Positions 6,257-49,645 of a stretch of 64,000 nucleotides of DNA are shown here, piece after piece. Origin of the DNA: Candidatus Daviesbacteria bacterium (lineage in GTDB: Bacteria; Patescibacteriota; Microgenomatia; Daviesbacterales; UBA10151); contig JACOXG010000012.1 in NCBI GenBank assembly GCA_016176405.1, positions 2,217 to 66,216 on the forward strand, given 5' to 3'. Position 1 is the stretch's first letter, and each line of letters begins with the position of its first letter. A program made the position numbers and the translations under genes. Under the pieces are notes generated by a model. The model saw nothing but the letters and a program-made list of their open reading frames with translations, had not been told where the DNA came from and ran no database searches.

Positions 6257-8368
6257 ATGGCAGTACTTAAGACTAAAAGAGACTTTCCCTTAGATAGAAT
6301 CCGCAACATGGGCATTATTGCTCACATTGATGCTGGAAAAACTACCACTACTGAGAGAATCCTTTTTTACACAGGTAGAACCTATAAAATTGGAGATATT
6401 GATGAGGGCACAACAGTCACAGATTGGATGGAGCAGGAAAGAGAAAGAGGAATTACTATTGTTTCTGCAGCCATTACCACTTTTTGGAAAGATACCAGAA
6501 TTAATTTGATTGATACCCCAGGTCATGTTGATTTTACAGCTGAGGTAGAAAGAAGTTTGCGTGTTTTGGATGGAGGAGTGATTGTTTTAGATGCCTCATC
6601 AGGAGTCCAATCTCAAACAGAAACTGTGTGGAGACAGGCCAATAAATATAAAGTACCACTTATTGCTTTTGCCAATAAAATGGATGTGGTAGGGGCAGAT
6701 TTTATGGGCACAATTAAATCTGCCAGGGATAAACTTGGTGCTAATGCTTTGGCCTATAACCTGCCTATTGGTAAAGAGAATGATTTTAAAGGAGTTGTAG
6801 ACCTTTTAACCCAGAAAGCTTTTATTTGGGAAGGGGATGAAACAGGAGCTAAATTTAGTGAGATAGAGATCCCCTCAGATATGGCTTCGCAAGTAAAAGA
6901 AGCCAGGGAAAAATTGGTTGAGGAAATTTCTGGCACAGATGATCAATTAATGGAAAAATTCTTGGGTGGACAGGAAATTTCCATAGAAGAGCTTAAAAAG
7001 GCTTTAAGAAAAGCAGTGATTGAGAATAAAATTGTGCCTGTTTTAGCAGGATCCTCTTTAAGAAATAAAGGTGTTCAACCAATGTTAGATTGCGTGGTGG
7101 AATATTTACCATCGCCTCAAGATATTGCTGAGGTAGTTGGCCAAAACCCTAAGACTTCTGAGCAAGAAACAAGAAAGGCTGATCCGGCTGCATCTTTGGC
7201 TGCCCTTTCTTTTAAAATTCAAGTTGATCCACATGTGGGAAAACTAACCTATATCAGAGTTTATTCAGGAACATTAAAGAGTGGTTCCTATGTTTACAAT
7301 GCCACCAAACAAATTAAAGAAAGAGTGGGCAGACTACTTTTAATGCATGCCAATGATAGGGAGGAAATTGAGGAGGCTTTTGCTGGTGAGATTGTGGCAG
7401 CAGTAGGTTTGAAAGATACTGTTACTGGGGACACTCTCTGTGATGAAAATGCGCCAATTATTTTGGAATCTATTACTTTTCCTGATCCGGTGATTTCTTT
7501 AGCCATTGAACCCAAAACAAAATCTGATCAGGAAAAATTGGGTTATGCTTTAAATAGATTATCTGAGGAAGATCCGACTTTTAGAGTCAAATCTGATGCC
7601 GAGACTGGGCAAACAATCATTGCTGGCATGGGTGAGCTGCAATTGGAAATTTTGGTGGAGCGGATGAGAAGAGAATTTAAGGTGGAGGCCAATGTTGGTC
7701 AACCCCAGGTGGCTTATAAAGAAACCATTACCCAAAATGCAGAGGGTGAAGGTAAATATATCAGACAGACTGGGGGAAGAGGACAATATGGTCACTGTTT
7801 GCTTCGAATTGAACCTTTACCTCGGGGACAGGGAAGAGAATTTGTCTCAGAAGTGGTTGGCGGTGCTATTCCCAGAGAATTTATTCCTCCAATTGAAAAA
7901 GGAGTGATTGAAAAAGAAGATACGGGAATTTTGGCTGGATATCCGGTGACTGATATAAAAGTAGTAGTTTATGATGGTTCTTTCCATGATGTTGATTCAT
8001 CAGAAATTGCTTTCAAAATTGCTGCTTCTTTAGGTTTATCAGAGGCTGCTAAAAAAGCAGAGTTAATACTTCTTGAGCCTATTATGAAGGTGGAGGTGAC
8101 TACTCCTGAGGATTTTATGGGAGATATTATTGGAGATTTGTCCTCAAAAAGGGCTCAGATTTTAGGGACAGAAAAAAGAGGAAATTACACAGTCATTTTA
8201 GCTTTAGTACCCTTGGCAGAAATGCATGGATATGCTACAGCTTTAAGATCAATGTCCGAAGGAAGAGCCTCATATTATATGGAAGCAGATCATTATGAAA
8301 CAGTGCCCCAAAATATCACTCAAAAAATAGTTGAGTCCTCAGGCTTTACAGGTAGAGTAGAAAGGTAA
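6257..8368 (+). CDS. fusA: elongation factor G
   Basis: 703 aa. [31 protein letters not shown] GTPase motifs and domains II-V are conserved. Confidence 0.95.
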
Positions 8369-12768: not shown

Positions 12769-13052
12769 TGTCCAGAAGTACAAAAAAGGGTCCGTATATT
12801 GATGAAAAATTGATGAAAAAGGTGCAAGCTCAAAAAGCTTCTGGCAAAAAGGAGCCAATTAAAACTTGGGCTAGATCCTCGCAGATTCCGCCAGAGTTTG
12901 TTGGTCATACTTTTTTAGTCCATCAGGGCAAAAATTTTGTTTCTGTATATGTCTCTGAATCTATGGTCGGACAAAGATTGGGAGAATTTGCCCCAACCAG
13001 AATTTTTAGAGCACATGGAAAAGTGACAGAAAAATCTACGGCGAAGACGTAA
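12768..13052 (+). CDS. rpsS: 30S ribosomal protein S19
   Basis: [19 protein letters not shown]...[30 protein letters not shown] is canonical S19. Confidence 0.93.
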
Positions 13053-13061
13053 GATTTATAA

Positions 13062-13116
13062 GGACCTGATGCCCTCGCAGTATGGGATATTATACTGCTC
13101 GGTCATCAGAACCTTG
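13062..13116 (+). repeat. family-2 hairpin repeat, copy A (intergenic rpsS-rplV)
   Basis: ggaCCTGATGccctCGCAGTATgggatattATACTGCtcggtCATCAGaacctt. Nested perfect inverted repeats. Shares termini ggacctg...cagaacctt and loop atatt with copy B. Confidence 0.7.
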
Positions 13117-13137
13117 TAATTTTGTAGGAACAAAATT

Positions 13138-13494
13138 ATGGAAGCACAAACAATACAAAAATATATACACAGTAGCCCTCGGAAATTGAGGTTAGTAGCA
13201 GATATGGTGAGAGAAATAGAGCCCGCAAGGGCTTTGGATATTTTAACAATCACCCCAAAATCTGCTGCCAAAGATTTGTCTTCTGCCATCAGAACTGCTT
13301 TGGCCAATGCTAAACAAAAGGGTTTAGATGAAAGTAAAGTCACTTTCAAAAAAATTGAGATTAATGAAGGAACCAAGATGAAAAGGTATCGAGCTGGTGC
13401 CAGAGGAAGGGCTAAACCATATGCTAGAAGAATGAGCCATATCAAAATAGTGTTGAGTGATGAGAAAGGAGAAGTAGGTGGGACAAAAGATTAA
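13138..13494 (+). CDS. rplV: 50S ribosomal protein L22
   Basis: MEAQTIQKYIHSSPRKLRLVADMVRE...ALANAKQKGLDESKVTFKKIEINEGTKMKRYRAGARGRAKPYARRMSHIKIVL matches L22. Confidence 0.92.
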   Translation: MEAQTIQKYIHSSPRKLRLVADMVREIEPARALDILTITPKSAAKDLSSAIRTALANAKQKGLDESKVTFKKIEINEGTKMKRYRAGARGRAKPYARRMSHIKIVLSDEKGEVGGTKD

Positions 13495-14603: not shown

Positions 14604-14888
14604 GTGAAAAAACGAGAATTGACACAAATTAAAAGTTTACCAGTCAAAGAGCTAATTTTAAAAGCAAAAGCCATCAAAGGAGAAATAGCAAATTTAGTGA
14701 TTGATAAAAATATCAAAAAGTTAAAAGATACCAGATCTATTTTTAAAAAAAGAAAAGATTTGGCTCAGGTTTTAACAATTATCAGGCAAAAACAATTACT
14801 TGAAAAATTAGAATCTAGAGTCGAGAGTCAAGAGTCTAGTAAAGAAGTGTCAAAAGCTGAAACAAGAAAGGAGAAAACTAGTCTCTAG
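14604..14888 (+). CDS. rpmC: 50S ribosomal protein L29 with a C-terminal Lys/Glu/Ser-rich extension
   Basis: ELTQIKSLPVKELILKAKAIKGEIANLVID...LAQVLTIIRQK matches the L29 fold. A GTG start at 14604 follows a GAGAAAGGTGAG SD. An alternative TTG at 14583 overlaps rplP. Its tail contains a 35-nt repeat shared with recX. Confidence 0.75.
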   Translation: MKKRELTQIKSLPVKELILKAKAIKGEIANLVIDKNIKKLKDTRSIFKKRKDLAQVLTIIRQKQLLEKLESRVESQESSKEVSKAETRKEKTSL

Positions 14889-14911
14889 ACTCTAGCGACT
14901 AGTCACTACTT

Positions 14912-16020: not shown

Positions 16021-16090
16021 GGAGATCCTTCGACTCGCTTCGCTCGCTCAGGATGACAACAAAAGTTTAGAAATTATACTTTTGTTGTCA
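16021..16090 (+). repeat. family-1 palindromic repeat element, copy 1 (intergenic rplX-rplE)
   Basis: ggagatccttcgactcgcttcgctcgctcaggatgaca + hairpin TGACAACAAAAGT-ttagaaattata-ACTTTTGTTGTCA. It ends 1 nt before the rplE start. See 22077-22181 and 47786-47854. Confidence 0.8.
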
Positions 16091-16091
16091 A

Positions 16092-16637
16092 ATGACCATG
16101 AACAGACTTAAAGACAAATATCTAAAAGAAGTACAGGCTAAATTACAACAAGAACTGGGACTAAAGAACAGATTGGCCATACCCCGTTTGGATAAGATAG
16201 TCATCAGTATAGGTCTGGGAGAGGCCAAAGACAACAGTGGCATTTTAGATAAAGTTAAAATTTATTTGGCTGCTCTGGTTGGACAACAACCTGTTATAAC
16301 TTATGCTAAAAAATCTGTTGCTACTTTTAAAGTTTCTAAAGGTCAACCTATTGGGATGATGGTGACTTTAAGAGGTGATAAAATGTTTGCCTTCTTGGAT
16401 AAGTTAATTAATATTGTTTTACCCAAGGTGAGAGATTTTAAAGGTATCTCGGAAAAGTCCTTTGATACTCAAGGGAATTTAAATATTGGACTAAAAGAAC
16501 AGATTATTTTTCCTGAGGTAGATTATAAAGCAATTGATAAAGTGAGAGGTCTGGCTGTTACCATTACCAGCACTGCCAAAAATAAAGAGGAAGGGAGAAA
16601 ACTTTTAGAGGCATTGGGAATGCCGTTTAGGAGTTAA
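16092..16637 (+). CDS. rplE: 50S ribosomal protein L5
   Basis: [42 protein letters not shown]...[31 protein letters not shown] matches L5. Confidence 0.93.
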
Positions 16638-20373: not shown

Positions 20374-20406
20374 GGACTAAAGTCTTTGCGATCCTTCGGA
20401 TCTAAA

Positions 20407-20468
20407 GGACCTGCTCGCACTTCACTATGGAATATTATAGTTCGTGCTCGCAGAACCTTGCCTTTTTA
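20407..20468 (+). repeat. family-2 hairpin repeat, copy B (intergenic secY-adk)
   Basis: ggacctgCTCGCACTTCACtatggaatattataGTTCGTGCTCGCAGaaccttgccttttt. Matches 13062-13116 and the reverse complement of 49591-49645. Confidence 0.7.
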
Positions 20469-21825: not shown

Positions 21826-22068
21826 ATGATACAAGATGTAATTGAAATAGAGGGTAAGGTTGTGGAAGTTTTACCTAATACTTTATTTAGAGTTGAAATT
21901 GAGGAAAGTCGCGATCTGCCTGAACTGGTAGGCAGAGTCATCTTGTGTCATATATCAGGCAAGATGAGAATGCACTATATTAGGCTTTTGGAAGGAGATA
22001 AAGTTAGAATAGAGATGAGTCCGAAATATGATTTGGATAAAGGAAGGATAACATTTAGAATAAAGTGA
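21826..22068 (+). CDS. infA: translation initiation factor IF-1 (with a ~12-aa internal insertion)
   Basis: [18 protein letters not shown]...[36 protein letters not shown]. An [12 protein letters not shown] insertion lies in the S1-like fold. Confidence 0.88.
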
Positions 22069-22076
22069 CACGAAGT

Positions 22077-22181
22077 GTCATCCTGAACGAAGTGAAGGAT
22101 CTGATTACGAGGGAGATCCTTCGACTCGCTTCGCTCGCTCAGGATGACAGAAAAATTTAAGAAATTATAATTTTTCTGTCA
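22077..22181 (+). repeat. family-1 palindromic repeat element, copy 2 (intergenic infA-rpmJ), long form with extra inverted arm
   Basis: tgtcatcctgaacgaagtgaaggatc ...gatccttcgactcgcttcgctcgctcaggatgaca + hairpin TGACAGAAAAATT-taagaaattata-AATTTTTCTGTCA. Confidence 0.8.
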
Positions 22182-22188
22182 ACTAACA

Positions 22189-22305
22189 ATGAAAGTACAA
22201 GCAAGTATTAAAACAAGATGTAAGTTTTGCAAAATCGTTAAACGCGAGGGTATCTTGTACGTGATCTGTCCAAGAGATCCAAGACACAAGCAGAGACAAG
22301 GATAA
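22189..22305 (+). CDS. rpmJ: 50S ribosomal protein L36
   Basis: Manual translation gives [38 protein letters not shown] (38 aa). It is below the ORF-track cutoff. Canonical position between infA and rpsM. Confidence 0.88.
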
Positions 22306-22340
22306 AATACTTGTCCTGAGCGACTGAAAGGAGTCGAAGG

Positions 22341-22802
22341 ATGGCTAGAATTGCAGGAGTTGATTTACCAGAAAATAAAAGAGTTGATATTGGTTTAACC
22401 TATATCTTTGGGATAGGTAGATCCAATGTGATTCAGATTATAAAAAAAACAGGTATTGATGAAACAAAAAGAGTAAAAGATTTAACAGAGGAAGAAATTA
22501 ATAAATTACAAAAGGCTGTTGAGGAATTTAAAGTAGAGGGAGATTTATCCAGAGAAATTGAGCAAAATATTAAGAGATTAGAAGAAACTGGAAGCTATAG
22601 GGGAATCAGACATAGAAGGGGATTACCTGTCAGAGGGCAAAGGACTAAATCTAATGCTAGAACAAAACGAGGTAAAAGAAAAACAGTTGGGACAGTCAGG
22701 AAAGAGGCTGCGGCCAAAATGGGCGCTCCATCTGTTGTAGCTGGACCGACTAAAGAGGCTCAACCTCAAGTGAGCAAAGAAGTGGCCAAGGAAGGGGTAT
22801 AA
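22341..22802 (+). CDS. rpsM: 30S ribosomal protein S13 with a C-terminal extension
   Basis: [30 protein letters not shown]...[24 protein letters not shown] matches S13. The RBS and ATG are embedded in a family-1 repeat arm. Confidence 0.92.
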
Positions 22803-26129: not shown

Positions 26130-27542
26130 ATGGATTTACCCCCTGAGAAGATTTTTAAAAGTTATGATATTAGAGGAATTTATCCTGATCAGTTAAATGA
26201 ACAATTTGCCATCCCCATTACCAAAGCCATTTATAAACTTATTTCTGATCAACTAAATACCACTAAACCTCTCACTATTGCCGTAGGACGTGATATGAGA
26301 TTATCTTCTCCTGCTATTTTTGAGGCAGTTTCTAAAACTTTGGTGGAATTAGGTACAGAAGTGATTGATTTAGGAATTGTTTCCACCCCCACTTTTTATT
26401 TTGCAGTTTATAAATTTGGATATGACGGTGGGATTCAAATCACTGCCTCGCATAATCCCAAAGAGTATAACGGTTTAAAGATTGTTAGAAAATCGAAAAG
26501 TGGACTTATCAAAATTGGTAAAAATACTGGTATGGAAGATATTAAGAAAATGAGTAGAGAAGGGGTGGATATTGTTGCTCGAGGAAAAGGCAGTATTACC
26601 AAAAAAGAAGGGGTAGCTGAAGAAGAGGTACAAAATGCTTTAAAAATTGCAGGCTATCCTAATATTAAAAAATTTAAAATTGTGGCGGATGCAGCAAATG
26701 CCTTAGGAGCTTTATATATTGATGCTTTATTTAAAGCTATCCCTGGGGATTTAATAAAAATGAATTTTGAGCTAGATGGTACTTTTCCAGCTCACCCGGC
26801 AGATCCACTTATACCAGAAACTTTAAAAGATTTACAAAAAAAAGTTTTGGAGGAAAAAGCAGATTTTGGACTGGCCCCGGATGGAGATGGGGACAGATTA
26901 ATTTTTATTGATGAAAAAGGCCAAATCATTCCTGCCTCTTTGATCACTGCTTTGGTGGCCAAAGAGATACTATCCGAGAAAAAAGGGGAAACTATTCTTT
27001 TTGATATTCGCTATATTTTAACTCCTAAAAAAATTGTTGAGGAATACCAAGGTAAATATGAAATTACCAAAGTGGGACATGCTTTTATTACAGAAAAAAT
27101 GCACCAAACAGGTGGGATTTTTGCCGGTGAATCATCCGCCCATTATTTTTTTAGAGAGACTGGTAATGCTGAATCACAACTACCAATAATTTTAATAGTT
27201 CTTAAAGTAATGAGCCGCGAAAATAAATTAATTTCAGAGATTGTCGGATCGCTAAAGAGGAGTCATGAATCAGGGGAGATTAATTTCAGGGTGAAAAATG
27301 GCTTGGAAATAATCGAGGCTTTAAAGGAGAAATATTCGGATGCAGAAATTAGTGAATTGGATGGGATAGCAGTATCTTATAAAGACTGGCGATTTTCCAT
27401 TAGAACATCTAACACCGAACCATTGCTTCGTCTTAATGTTGAACATATTGGAAAAGAAGATTTGGAGGGTAAAACTCAAGAGATAATTGAGGAAATCAAA
27501 AAGCATGCAGTGTTTGAGGGTCCTTCGACAAACTCAGGATGA
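26130..27542 (+). CDS. phosphoglucomutase/phosphomannomutase family protein
   Basis: YDIRGIYP...ITASHNPKEYNGLKIV (active-site Ser)...APDGDGDRLIFID...GESSAHYFF. The last 8 codons and the stop lie inside a family-1 repeat copy. Confidence 0.88.
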   Translation: MDLPPEKIFKSYDIRGIYPDQLNEQFAIPITKAIYKLISDQLNTTKPLTIAVGRDMRLSSPAIFEAVSKTLVELGTEVIDLGIVSTPTFYFAVYKFGYDGGIQITASHNPKEYNGLKIVRKSKSGLIKIGKNTGMEDIKKMSREGVDIVARGKGSITKKEGVAEEEVQNALKIAGYPNIKKFKIVADAANALGALYIDALFKAIPGDLIKMNFELDGTFPAHPADPLIPETLKDLQKKVLEEKADFGLAPDGDGDRLIFIDEKGQIIPASLITALVAKEILSEKKGETILFDIRYILTPKKIVEEYQGKYEITKVGHAFITEKMHQTGGIFAGESSAHYFFRETGNAESQLPIILIVLKVMSRENKLISEIVGSLKRSHESGEINFRVKNGLEIIEALKEKYSDAEISELDGIAVSYKDWRFSIRTSNTEPLLRLNVEHIGKEDLEGKTQEIIEEIKKHAVFEGPSTNSG

Positions 27543-27560
27543 CGAATTAGGAAATTTGTC
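27516..27560 (+). repeat. family-1 repeat element, short copy overlapping the pgm 3' end
   Basis: gagggtccttcgacaaactcaggatgacgaattaggaaatttgtca. Hairpin TGACGAAT/ATTTGTCA. The stop codon TGA lies within the conserved caggaTGAca. Confidence 0.65.
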
Positions 27561-34096: not shown

Positions 34097-34774
34097 ATGC
34101 CCAAAATTACCTCAGTTGAACCTCAGAAAAAAACCCTTAGACTTCGCTCAGGGCAAGGTCCGCACAGATTTAATATTTTTTTAGATGGAGTGTTTGCTTT
34201 TGGGGCAGATGAGGATTTGGTGGTAGAAAATAGGTTAGTGGAGGGAAAATTACTTGACACATCCGATGTGGAACAGCTGTTATTTGAGGCAGAGGTAGGA
34301 AAATTGATGGAGAAGATGTATGGACTTTTTAATATCAGACAAAGATCTGAAAGAGAAGTCAGGAATTATTTTAGAGTCAAGAATCTAGAATCTAGAATCA
34401 AGGGTAAAGAAGAAATAAGCGATTTAGCAATTGAGTTAGTTATTAAAAAGTTAAAACAAAAAAATCTAATAAATGATGAGGAATTTGCCAAAGCTTGGGT
34501 AGAATCAAGATCCAGAAAGTATGGCATAAATAGAATAAAACAGGAACTTTTTCAAAAAGGGATTAATAGAGAAATTATAGAGGAAGTGACTAGAGTCGAG
34601 AGTCTAGAGTCTAGTGAAGAAGTGGCCCAACAACTTTTGGAAAAGAAGATGAGAGTATGGAAAGATTTACCAATTTTAGAATTTAAAAAGAAAGCTTATG
34701 AGTTTTTAATGAGAAGGGGTTTTGAGTTTGAAGTAGTTAAGGCTGTTGTTGAAAAATATCTTAAAAAAGAGTAA
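34097..34774 (+). CDS. recX: recombination regulator RecX
   Basis: Lies immediately downstream of recA. Three-helix repeat architecture ...INDEEFAKAWVESRSRKYGINRIKQELFQKGINREIIEEV...KAYEFLMRRGFEFEVVKAV. Confidence 0.75.
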   Translation: MPKITSVEPQKKTLRLRSGQGPHRFNIFLDGVFAFGADEDLVVENRLVEGKLLDTSDVEQLLFEAEVGKLMEKMYGLFNIRQRSEREVRNYFRVKNLESRIKGKEEISDLAIELVIKKLKQKNLINDEEFAKAWVESRSRKYGINRIKQELFQKGINREIIEEVTRVESLESSEEVAQQLLEKKMRVWKDLPILEFKKKAYEFLMRRGFEFEVVKAVVEKYLKKE

Positions 34775-47233: not shown

Positions 47234-48226
47234 GTGAATACTAAAATATTAACTATTTTAGGTCCTACTGCAACAGGTAAAACTGACCTAGCCTTAATGG
47301 TGGCAAAAAAATTTAATGGAGAGATTATTTCTTGTGATTCCAGACAAGTTTATAAGGGCTTGGATATCGGCACGGGAAAAATGCCAAATGCCAAATTACA
47401 AATTACAAAAGGAGATAGCTTTTGGGAAATAAACAGCATAAAAGTTTGGATGTATGATATGGTGGATCCAAAAAAAATATATTCTGTGGCGGATTATGTT
47501 AAAGATGCAAATAGGGTAATTGGGGAAATTAAGGATAGAGGAAAGTTGCCAATTATAGTTGGAGGTACAGGACTTTATTTAAGAGCCTTACTGGAAGGAT
47601 TAGATAGTCTTTCAATACCAATTGATAAAAAATTAAGAACTGAGCTACAAAAACTTTCATTAGTTGAGCTTCAAGAAAAATTACAGGAGGTAGATGCTAA
47701 AAAATGGAAGAAAATGAATGACTCTGACAGACAGAACCCAAGAAGGTTGGTAAGAGCTATTGAATTGGCTTTGTCAAATCATGTGGGAGATCCTTCGGTC
47801 GCTACGCTCCCTCAGGATGACAAACTGCGTTTAGAGATTATACGCAGTTTGTCAAATGTGCTAAAGGTTGGTCTAACTGCGCCAAGAGATGTCCTTTATA
47901 AAAGAGTTGATGAGCATGTGGTTTTTAGAATTAACCAAGGCATGATTGATGAGGCAAAAAGACTTTATAAAAATAGTTTAAGTTTAAAAAGGATGAGACA
48001 GCTTGGTTTGGAATATGGAGTTTTGGCAGATTATTTAGAGGAAAAAATTAAAAGTAAAGAGGGCCTAATTAAAATCTTGCAGCATAAAATTCATGGCTAT
48101 GTCAGACGTCAACTGACTTGGTTTAAAAAAGAAAAAGAGGTAAATTGGTTTGATATTTCTGATCAAGATTATATTAAGAAAATAGAAAAATTAGTCAGCA
48201 TTTGGTATGATCAATCCATAGAATGA
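47234..48226 (+). CDS. miaA: tRNA dimethylallyltransferase, carrying an in-frame family-1 repeat insertion
   Basis: LTILGPTATGKTDLALMVAKKFNGEIISCDSRQVYKGLDIGTGK P-loop. Residues GDPSVATLPQDDKLRLEIIRSLSN are encoded by repeat copy 3. Confidence 0.88.
   Translation: MNTKILTILGPTATGKTDLALMVAKKFNGEIISCDSRQVYKGLDIGTGKMPNAKLQITKGDSFWEINSIKVWMYDMVDPKKIYSVADYVKDANRVIGEIKDRGKLPIIVGGTGLYLRALLEGLDSLSIPIDKKLRTELQKLSLVELQEKLQEVDAKKWKKMNDSDRQNPRRLVRAIELALSNHVGDPSVATLPQDDKLRLEIIRSLSNVLKVGLTAPRDVLYKRVDEHVVFRINQGMIDEAKRLYKNSLSLKRMRQLGLEYGVLADYLEEKIKSKEGLIKILQHKIHGYVRRQLTWFKKEKEVNWFDISDQDYIKKIEKLVSIWYDQSIE
47786..47854 (+). repeat. family-1 palindromic repeat element, copy 3, in-frame inside miaA
   Basis: ggagatccttcggtcgctacgctccctcaggatgaca + hairpin TGACAAACTGCGT-ttagagattata-ACGCAGTTTGTCA. 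The stem is fully compensated relative to copies 1 and 2. Confidence 0.8.
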
Positions 48227-49206: not shown

Positions 49207-49565
49207 GCCTAGGAAGAAGGATGATCACCCCGCACCAATCTGGTGCGGGGAGGAAAGTCCAGACAGCACAGGGCAGGGTGGTTCGGGTAACCGGACTCGG
49301 GTAACCGCAAGTAAAGAGTAACAGAGACGATCTGGGTGACGCCAGGTGAAACGACCAAGTGACTGGGTATTCGATAAGCAAAGGGCTATCAGTCCTGAGC
49401 GAAGTCGAAGGACAATCCTCCCCGCTGCAATCCTAGAAACAATCGAGCTGCTCGCTCAATGATTGAAGTCAGGAGCAGTCGCCTAAGGCGACTCAGGATG
49501 ACAAAAATCATACTGAAGATAAATGATCATCTAGAAACAGAATCTGGCTTACTTTTTTCCTAGGC
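49207..49565 (+). ncRNA. rnpB: RNase P RNA (bacterial type A-like)
   Basis: P1 GCCTAGGAAG...CTTTTTTCCTAGGC. P3 CCCCGCACC-aatc-GGTGCGGGG. P4 GGAAAGTCC. ACAGGGCAGGGTG. ...ACAGAATCTGGCTTAC 3' P4 strand. Contains a ~130-nt segment with family-1-like arms. Confidence 0.75.
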
Positions 49566-49590
49566 AATTTTTTTGCCGACGGAAAAAAGC

Positions 49591-49645
49591 AAAGTTCTGC
49601 GAGCGTGAAGTAAAATATTTAATACTGAAGCGCGAGCAGGTCTTT
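49591..49645 (-). repeat. family-2 hairpin repeat, copy C (minus orientation, downstream of rnpB)
   Basis: The reverse complement aaagacctgctcgcgcttcagtattaaatattttacttcacgctcgcagaactttgc aligns with copies A and B. Confidence 0.65.

Follow-up and report, generated by a model that had tools for sequence, protein, structure and literature searches.

A single unit of a REP-like repeat at the translation-initiation region of rpsM in a Candidatus Daviesbacteria ribosomal superoperon

In the S10-spc-alpha ribosomal superoperon of a Candidatus Daviesbacteria genome (Patescibacteria, or candidate phyla radiation, CPR), the short spacer between rpmJ and rpsM consists almost entirely of sequence related to a dispersed repeat. 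The analysis covered a stretch of 64,000 nt (contig JACOXG010000012.1, positions 2,217 to 66,216, hereafter the window), in which the superoperon spans 9.5-26.1 kb with the gene order ...rplX, rplE, ..., secY, adk, map, infA, rpmJ, rpsM, rpsK, rpsD, rpoA, rplQ, the gene labels being supported by Pfam labels at orthologous loci. By sequence comparison, the segment in front of rpsM is one unit (a singlet) of a (C/T)GTC-tagged repeat resembling the repetitive extragenic palindromic (REP) elements, which usually occurs as inverted dimers. The unit has probably been co-opted opportunistically and kept by selection as the translation-initiation region of rpsM.

The repeat unit at the start of rpsM

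The stop codon of rpmJ at 22303-22305 and the ATG of rpsM at 22341-22343 are separated by a spacer of 35 nt (22306-22340) that reads aatacttgtcctgagcgactgaaaggagtcgaagg. The N-terminus of the product inferred from this ATG agrees with all homologues, and the S13 protein is 100% identical to an NCBI Candidatus Daviesbacteria S13. The sequence at 22310-22344, cttgtcctgagcgactgaaaggagtcgaaggATGg, contains a TGTC tag (22312-22315), an outer box CCTGAGCGA, a variable middle and an inner box GTCGAAGGAT. The unit is degenerate and stands in the left-arm orientation (Table 1).

The repeat finder identified positions 22314-22342 as complementary to the right arms of two other copies in the window, at 16025-16053 (copy 1) and 22116-22144 (copy 2), with 25 of 29 positions matching (86%). 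When the unit was aligned without gaps to the copy-2 right arm in reverse complement, the local score was 38. As a null, the whole window was shuffled 200 times with its dinucleotide composition preserved, and each time we recorded the best score found anywhere on both strands. These best scores had a mean of 21.0, a standard deviation of 1.7 and a maximum of 26, so that the match is well beyond what is expected by chance. In addition, the 13-mer GAGTCGAAGGAT, allowing at most one mismatch, was found in the window solely at copies 1 and 2 and at the rpsM unit. The presence of a repeat-family match at this junction, proposed in an initial annotation made from the DNA sequence, is thereby confirmed. 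The arm that was quoted there for comparison has to be exchanged, however, since the left arm of copy 2 scores 21, equal to the null mean, and it is the reverse complement of the right arms that the unit resembles.

In the alignment, CTGAGCGA-GCGAAGCG-AGTCGAAGGATC of the repeat corresponds to CTGAGCGA-CTGAAAGG-AGTCGAAGGATG of the rpsM unit. The central octamer carries four changes (GCGAAGCG to CTGAAAGG), which give GAAAGGAG, the final C is replaced by G, and 3 nt are deleted from the outer box, which reads TGTC-CCTGA as compared with TGTCATCCTGA. The Shine-Dalgarno (SD) sequence of rpsM, AAAGGAG, is located within this divergent stretch of 8 nt, in agreement with the earlier placement of the SD in the variable middle. 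The same arrangement, AAAGGAG-N7-9-ATG, also precedes rpsS, rpsD, rpsI and adk in the window. The start codon had been thought to be formed by the conserved end of the repeat, and this applies in part: the last two letters of the inner box are the A and T of the start codon, which coincide with ...GAAGGAT, but the G stands in the place of a C. Because the overlap is a coincidence of 2 nt, with a probability of 1 in 16, it lends little support to the view that the codon was made by the element.

When folded alone, the unit retains the layout of the repeat unit. In the predicted structure, an outer stem pairs 22313-22317 (GUCCU) with 22338-22342 (AGGAU, including the A and U of the AUG), and is separated by a small internal loop from an inner stem, 22321-22325 with 22332-22336 (CGACU/AGUCG), that is longer than in the family. 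The loop GAAAGG (22326-22331) presents the first half of the SD and the other half is in the inner stem. The segment UUGUCCU at the start of the unit is able to pair with either AGGAUAA or AGGAUG, both in the window (22300-22317) and in L141, a relative described below (7960-7977). These two pairings hint, speculatively, at a two-state arrangement.

Table 1. Positions of the rpsM unit, adjacent genes and other repeat copies.
Feature	Position	Strand	Remarks
Single degenerate unit, left-arm orientation	22312..22343	+	Repeat finder, shuffle null, nhmmer
SD AAAGGAG of rpsM	22327..22333	+	7 nt before ATG, in the 8-nt variable middle of the unit
Predicted RNA stem-loop of the unit	22313..22342	+	Fold prediction
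rpmJ (L36)	22189..22305	+	Gene upstream of the unit; Pfam Ribosomal_L36 in orthologous loci
rpsM (S13)	22341..22802	+	Initiation region provided by the unit; PF00416
Copy 1, rplX-rplE spacer	16022..16091	+	Degenerate left remnant, right unit 16022-16058, hairpin 2 (16055-16089), TGTCAA
Copy 2, infA-rpmJ spacer	22076..22149	.	Full inverted dimer: left unit 22076-22102, right unit 22114-22149
Copy 3, in miaA open reading frame (47234-48226)	47787..47855	+	Right unit and hairpin 2, in frame
Short single unit, 3' end of phosphomannomutase-like open reading frame	27521..27544	-	E 0.002
Hairpin 2 modules	16055-16091, 22146-22182, 47819-47855; L004 7795-7831	+ in window	Each after a right arm

Conservation at the rpmJ-rpsM junction and competing explanations

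For the comparative analysis, relatives were gathered via homologues and one metagenome scan, and the rpmJ-rpsM spacer was measurable in 19 Daviesbacteria-like relatives. The nominally closest S13 (P0007, 88% identity) was rejected since its start is mis-called and overlaps rpmJ. The spacer is 2-3 nt long in 11 of the 19 relatives, in which the rpmJ codons ...CAAGGATAA supply AGGA directly before the ATG, and 5-53 nt of unrelated sequence in others; unrelated spacers of at least 30 nt are AT-rich and contain a GGAGG-type SD. The unit is present in one relative alone, L141 (Ga0209542_10001719), where the spacer reads ...ggataaatacttgtcctgagTgactgaaaggagtcgaaggATG.

The spacers of the window and L141 are identical at 33 of 34 positions and differ further by one 1-nt indel, whereas the nucleotide identities for infA, rpmJ and rpsM are 73-83%, with 62-65% identity at the third positions of identical codons. 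Assuming a neutral identity of 0.63, we calculated the probability of at least 33 matches in 34 positions to be about 3e-6. Given this identity against about 63% at silent sites of the flanking genes, the unit appears to be under selection. Over 17 proteins the two genomes share 71.9% identity and are no closer mutually than to nine other lineages. The single substitution in L141 (C22321 to T) turns a predicted C-G pair into U·G. A recent recombination or gene-conversion tract was considered as a cause of the identity and is unlikely, since L141 resembles the window over the flanking 27 and 30 nt no more closely than the other relatives do. From these comparisons we conclude that the rpsM unit appears to have been gained once and to be functional and constrained over its whole length.

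The explanation that we consider probable is that an ancestor of the window genome and L141 acquired a unit at its rpmJ-rpsM junction, which until then was probably 2-3 nt long and translationally coupled. Selection would then have retained the unit, which would now act as the rpsM initiation region, with an enlarged central loop carrying the SD AAAGGAG and a 3' stem strand (AGGAU) that runs into the AUG. The hairpin would be a modest one, in which the sequence 10-14 nt after the rpmJ stop pairs with the AGGAU of the start region, and ribosomes that complete rpmJ could assist in opening the rpsM start, so that the coupling of the relatives with spacers of 2-3 nt would be maintained. Under this model of the mRNA fold, initiation at rpsM would be tied to the translation of rpmJ.

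Several observations weigh against the co-option of a repeat unit as a coupled initiation region. The pan-bacterial arm model (nhmmer) matches 22314-22342 weakly, with 11.3 bits and an E value of 0.12, which we attribute to the 3-nt deletion and the enlarged middle. The hairpin, with a minimum free energy of -12.6 kcal/mol (z = -1.4), is not unusually stable, and the minimum free energy structure of L141 is a different fold, in which UUGUCCU pairs with AGGAUAA of the rpmJ stop region. Furthermore, about 10 nt separate the rpmJ stop from the outer stem, which places the stem at the edge of the unwinding reach of a terminating ribosome. As for the history of the unit, a neighbour-joining tree placed both the window genome and L141 near the base of the group and did not resolve them as sisters, and with two carriers, vertical inheritance combined with one loss is inseparable from a single gain in a clade formed by the window genome and L141.

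With 34 nt almost fixed at a protein identity of about 72%, the unit may be more than a passively retained SD. According to the most far-reaching proposal, the rpsM unit is a structured switch in which UUGUCCU would pair with either the rpmJ stop region (AGGAUAA) or the rpsM start (AGGAUG), the repeat unit is a module that a universal cellular factor recognises, and the composites of an arm and a second hairpin (hairpin 2, see below) are mobile promoter/start cassettes. Taken jointly, these three claims are unlikely. If they were true, production of the S13-S11-S4-RpoA-L17 block would be coupled or regulated by the switch, and the cassettes would serve the compact operons of CPR bacteria.

Other explanations account for the same segment without co-option. 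The inner box GAAGGA is itself SD-like and the 3' end of rpmJ (CAAGGATAA) resembles it too, which together with the E value of the general arm model could suggest that a purine-rich SD region came to resemble an arm by chance or convergence; with a score that exceeds the best of all 200 shuffles and a likeness that extends to parts outside the SD, namely TGTC, CCTGAGCGA and the 13-mer, this is extremely improbable. The complementarity of 25 of 29 positions between 22116-22144 and 22314-22342, which are 169 nt apart, would also allow the right arm of copy 2 to pair across rpmJ with the rpsM unit, whose SD and AUG would be sequestered; the left arm of copy 2 would compete with this pairing. We reject such long-range pairing as highly improbable because L141 keeps the rpsM unit without any element between infA and rpmJ (gaaataattatATG). 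In another relative, L004, the upstream element is present and the rpsM unit absent, and the fold of copy 2 by itself is very stable (-46.5 kcal/mol for 22066-22190, z = -6.4). In Escherichia coli, S4 exerts control at the rpsM start through the alpha-operon leader. This leader (RF00140), an S4-binding pseudoknot, is like the unit in being a structured RNA over the SD and AUG of rpsM at the head of rpsM-rpsK-rpsD-rpoA-rplQ. An autoregulatory leader with a site for S4 or S13 that controls this block, to which the repeat likeness would be secondary, would be in line with the conservation of all 34 nt, beyond the SD, and with the location of rpsD in the same block as rpsM. Yet the score of the Rfam Alpha_RBS model is 10.6 bits (E 6.7), below the gathering score of 38, a partner for a pseudoknot was not found, and the unit is a simple two-stem hairpin that is absent from most relatives; most of these have a spacer of 2-3 nt and therefore no such leader, which makes this explanation very doubtful here.

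It had also been suggested that the elements, termed Family-1 in the initial annotation, are recruited as, or target, initiation regions in the superoperon. Recruitment is borne out at rpsM, where the unit is approximately the whole initiation region and is kept at 33 of 34 positions in L141, and by a singlet in front of rplR at L004. Targeting is not. Of the five robust copies found in the window, three are located in ribosomal protein gene spacers directly upstream of start codons, L004 contains two more, upstream of rpmJ and rplR, and in copies 1 and 2 the start codons of rplE and rpmJ follow exactly 6 nt after TGTCAA. However, three of five copies in 26% of the window is not a significant excess (binomial p about 0.11, our calculation). 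Since the spacers of the operon are 0-30 nt long, intergenic copies there must abut both stop and start, and the copies do abut or include stop codons too. Others are located in frame inside miaA and inside the map gene of the relative L142, and one extends across the stop of a phosphomannomutase gene. Moreover, 11 other Daviesbacteria operons (725 kb) mostly have no copy (21 nhmmer matches at E<=10, of which 10 at E<=0.1). A crude survey in other phyla, based on open reading frames (ORFs) and on low-GC loci with the same motif, yielded 25 co-directional intergenic copies, 16 nearer to the upstream stop, 8 nearer to the downstream start and 1 tie, with median distances of 76 nt to the stop and 124 nt to the start, in addition to 6 copies between convergent and 4 between divergent genes. 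Start-site targeting is thus not supported by the positions of the copies, and a general tendency of Family-1 elements to insert preferentially at, or systematically become, translation-initiation regions of the superoperon is decidedly unlikely. The repeat rather seems to land wherever it is tolerated, with a purine-rich strand (GAGCGAAGCGAAGGA) that may easily be turned into an SD.

The repeat family and its counterparts

We scanned one genome per species, in total 596 Gb, for the pattern ATCCTTC-N4-21-TCAGGATGAC and obtained at least 120 matching stretches. Among the matches listed were Chloroflexota, Acidobacteriota, Bacteroidota, Omnitrophota, Patescibacteria, Planctomycetota, Verrucomicrobiota, Gemmatimonadota, Nitrospirota, Clostridia, Legionellales and others. 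Because we estimate that about 1250 matches to the arm pattern are expected by chance over 596 Gb, single matches prove little. Strict inverted pairs less than 200 nt apart were present at 21 loci among the matches listed, and most others had a variant partner arm. With a hidden Markov model (HMM) of the arm, 31 pairs were found among 148 elements, and many of the matches that seemed solitary have a variant partner. By these sequence matches, the repeat is not peculiar to Daviesbacteria and occurs with nearly the same sequence in many phyla.

The alignment of 231 distinct arms to the HMM, with 181-203 arms contributing per position, revealed a common layout, in which every arm forms a stem-loop of its own. 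The (C/T)GTC tag is followed by A-T, T-A, C-G, C-G and T-A pairs that are nearly always kept, and by a tandem G·A/A·G in the stem that is nearly invariant (198 of 198 and 196 of 198 arms). Two inner pairs covary, with GC replaced by AT 20 times and CG by GC 11 times, and are followed by a short loop with a consensus of about 4 nt. In a mixed dimer at locus L101, ATTCC...GGAAT stands beside ATCCT...AGGAT. Because each of these arms keeps its own complementarity, the arm rather than the dimer is the repeat unit.

At the outer, tagged end of many right arms in other phyla, 2-3 tandem partial repeats ...GCTCAGGATGACA follow (L016, L032, L040, L102, L115, L117), which suggests slippage or iterated binding sites. 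The arm pattern was also found in viral contigs of IMG/VR (L210-L289 and further), several of which carry 2-3 copies among the matches listed; the chance expectation for single matches in viral contigs is not negligible. Phages or prophages carrying the repeat may offer a route for its spread across phyla.

No gene was found to be recurrently located beside the repeat: in an all-against-all BLAST of 3468 ORFs from the 8-kb flanks of 120 loci, no protein cluster was present in more than 10 loci, though this is a weak test. An Rfam search, at gathering thresholds and at E<=10, gave nothing meaningful over the element or the rpsM leader, and a full-text literature search for the arm sequence returned unrelated primers alone. 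A hammerhead-like core (CUGA...GAA) was dismissed upon inspection as the conserved positions do not fit.

The REP, BIME and REPIN elements of E. coli and Pseudomonas bear the tag GTAG, have sequences specific to the species and are associated with RAYT transposase genes. Like the repeat studied here, they are short, GC-rich stem-loops found singly and as inverted doublets, mostly extragenic and often nearer to the 3' ends of genes. They differ in that the present repeat has a (C/T)GTC tag, is nearly the same in many phyla and has no recurrent neighbour in the 120 loci.

The arms share the architecture published for the CGTC-tagged REPs. These have a CGTC tag or its variants TGTC or CCTC, stems of 8-9 that start with AT and loops of 4-5, mostly form inverted dimers, have no dedicated transposase and are often located in frame in proteins (Di Nocera et al. 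2013, PMC3733652). They include RPE-4 and RPE-6, two of the Rickettsia palindromic elements (RPEs), and dRS3 of Neisseria, and are reported there from five phyla and in four families, CGTC-1 to -4 (PMC3733652). The tag is alike: TGTC is present at 22312-22315 and 22076-22079, GACA at the outer ends of the right arms, and CGTC or TGTC precedes ATCCTGA in paired copies of other phyla. The stem of our family likewise starts with AT and its loop is about 4 nt (181-196 arms for the outer pairs), and both groups comprise inverted dimers and singlets, in-frame insertions in housekeeping genes, copies at ORF ends and a distribution across phyla. The rpsM copy itself shares this stem-loop layout in part, since its 5' AT is deleted, its loop has 6 nt and its inner stem 5 bp. 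In contrast to the CCA tail of the CGTC-tagged REPs, the units here end in ...GGATCTC or GGATCTG (CTC/CTG), and in the rpsM unit the G of the start codon takes the place of the tail. The nearly invariant tandem G·A/A·G of the stem is a further difference from the CGTC-tagged REPs, and Patescibacteria, Chloroflexota, Acidobacteriota, Omnitrophota and others are beyond the five phyla reported for them. When the families are compared by encoded peptides, rather than by consensus sequences, those here are of the VILSEAKDL / SLRMT type as opposed to VIPAKAGI, DGRVKPGHD, VILDGRNIEF and RHSELVSGS listed for CGTC-1 to -4 (PMC3733652). Back-translation of the CGTC-2 peptide RHSELVSGS, as given there, to CGTCATTCTGAAC... 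suggests a shared outer box.

The closest precedent for the co-opted unit, by analogy, is REP2 of Neisseria, which like the inverted repeat (IR) of Borrelia brings promoter, ribosome-binding site and ATG directly upstream of genes (Delihas 2011, PMC3184786). Neither has a sequence relationship to the repeat studied here. The composite of 85 nt in the window appears similar to REP2 in its layout, in which an arm is followed by hairpin 2, containing the promoter-like ATGACA-16-TATAAT, and then by an ATG at a constant distance of 6 nt. In the rpsM unit, a single arm provides an SD and an ATG with no promoter-like site, whereas REP2 carries a promoter. The composite copies, on the other hand, have a promoter-like site and an ATG at 6 nt with no SD, and one of the three is inside miaA, which is not described for REP2.

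Since repeat-borne ribosome-binding site and ATG signals and in-frame REP and RPE insertions are already documented, the rpsM case is not unprecedented and current understanding is not overturned. The newer points are the combination of a CPR host with a site in a core ribosomal operon, the near-total conservation across distant lineages and the breadth of phyla. It provides a comparative case of a tiny, tightly packed CPR genome gaining a ribosome-binding site via a selfish palindromic repeat. Essential proteins (Map and MiaA) can accommodate the repeat, which is also able to contribute stop codons, SDs and perhaps promoters. In genome annotation, the units account for recurrent spurious peptides and odd insertions or extensions in CPR proteins.

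Other copies of the repeat and additional elements in the window

In the rplX-rplE and infA-rpmJ spacers, copies 1 and 2, respectively, occupy all of the sequence between stop and start. The initial annotation described the elements as abutting rplE and rpmJ, which applies to the composite; the arm itself does not reach the start codon and a separate module, hairpin 2, does. This module consists of GACA, a variable stem, a loop TTTAGAAATTAT (TTAAGAAATTAT in copy 2), the complementary stem and TGTCAA. In the four copies compared, all 13 pairs are kept, of which 7 are compensatory and 0 broken, and no two copies have the same inner stem. Upstream of rplE and rpmJ, hairpin 2 provides the two best sigma-70-like sites on the plus strand of the 14 kb scanned, ATGACA-16-TATAAT and ATGACA-16-TATACT, with the former, in copy 2, being the top match (11 of 12 positions). 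The true start of rplE is probably at 16098, because the homologues begin MNRLKDKY, and no SD was found upstream of rplE or rpmJ in the SD check of the window. On the basis of these features, hairpin 2 may be a repeat-borne promoter/start cassette.

The reading frame of miaA continues through copy 3 (...GDPSVATLPQDDKLRLEIIRSLSNVL...), which lies in a linker of MiaA with little conservation, and the IPPT domain as well as alignments to MiaA structures in the PDB span both sides of the copy. The linker in the PDB proteins is nearly as long, with a net difference of about 7 aa, and the copy may thus reflect an insertion combined with a deletion. A clean insertion is seen in L142 (1232-1314), where a complete inverted dimer adds 24 aa in frame (...GHPEQSEGSVANATSNKLRDPSSSTQDD...) to the methionine aminopeptidase Map, analogous to the RPE insertions of Rickettsia. 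The short unit at the end of the phosphomannomutase-like gene makes up its last eight codons (...EGPSTNSG) and its stop, a TGA within ...CTCAGGATGAC, so that stop codons too, besides start signals, are donated by the repeat. In L004 (3486-3520), a single unit in the left orientation, cttcatcctgaggaggtactaagcagacgaaggatctattATG, is located between rplF and rplR with a GAAGGA box 6 nt before the ATG of rplR, a parallel to the rpsM case.

The inclusion of rnpB among the repeat copies could not be upheld. The support is weak (nhmmer E 0.15-0.26, score 24), and the candidate was rejected because the two arm-like stretches are located in different parts of the RNase P alignment with scores at the noise level. 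In this gene (49209-49567), a stretch of 51 nt replaces the part of the RNase P model between the GGUGAAA motif and the return strand, and a further stretch of 37 nt precedes the AGAUAAAUG segment; GTCCTGAGCGAAGTCGAAGGA and GACTCAGGATGACA lie at these two places. Within GTCCTGAGCGAAGTCGAAGGA, the blocks GTCCTGAGCGA...GTCGAAGGA are common to the rpsM unit, and membership in the family is statistically weak.

Three further sets of repeated or inverted sequences were observed in the window. A separate repeat of 63 nt is present at 20405-20467 and, inverted, at 49583-49645 (83% complementary), one copy being located in the 134-nt spacer between secY and adk and the other just downstream of rnpB. 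Positions 13052-13138, in an 85-nt spacer before the ORF at 13138-13494, form a long imperfect hairpin, cctgatgccctcgcagta-TGGGATATTATA-ctgctcggtcatcag, with a loop that resembles that of hairpin 2. Short CTAGAGTCGAGAGTC(A/T)AGAGTCTAGT repeats, both direct and inverted, occur at 14794-14849, 14877-14907, 34364-34405 and 34569-34624, and are partly inside ORFs at the rpmC/rpsQ junction.

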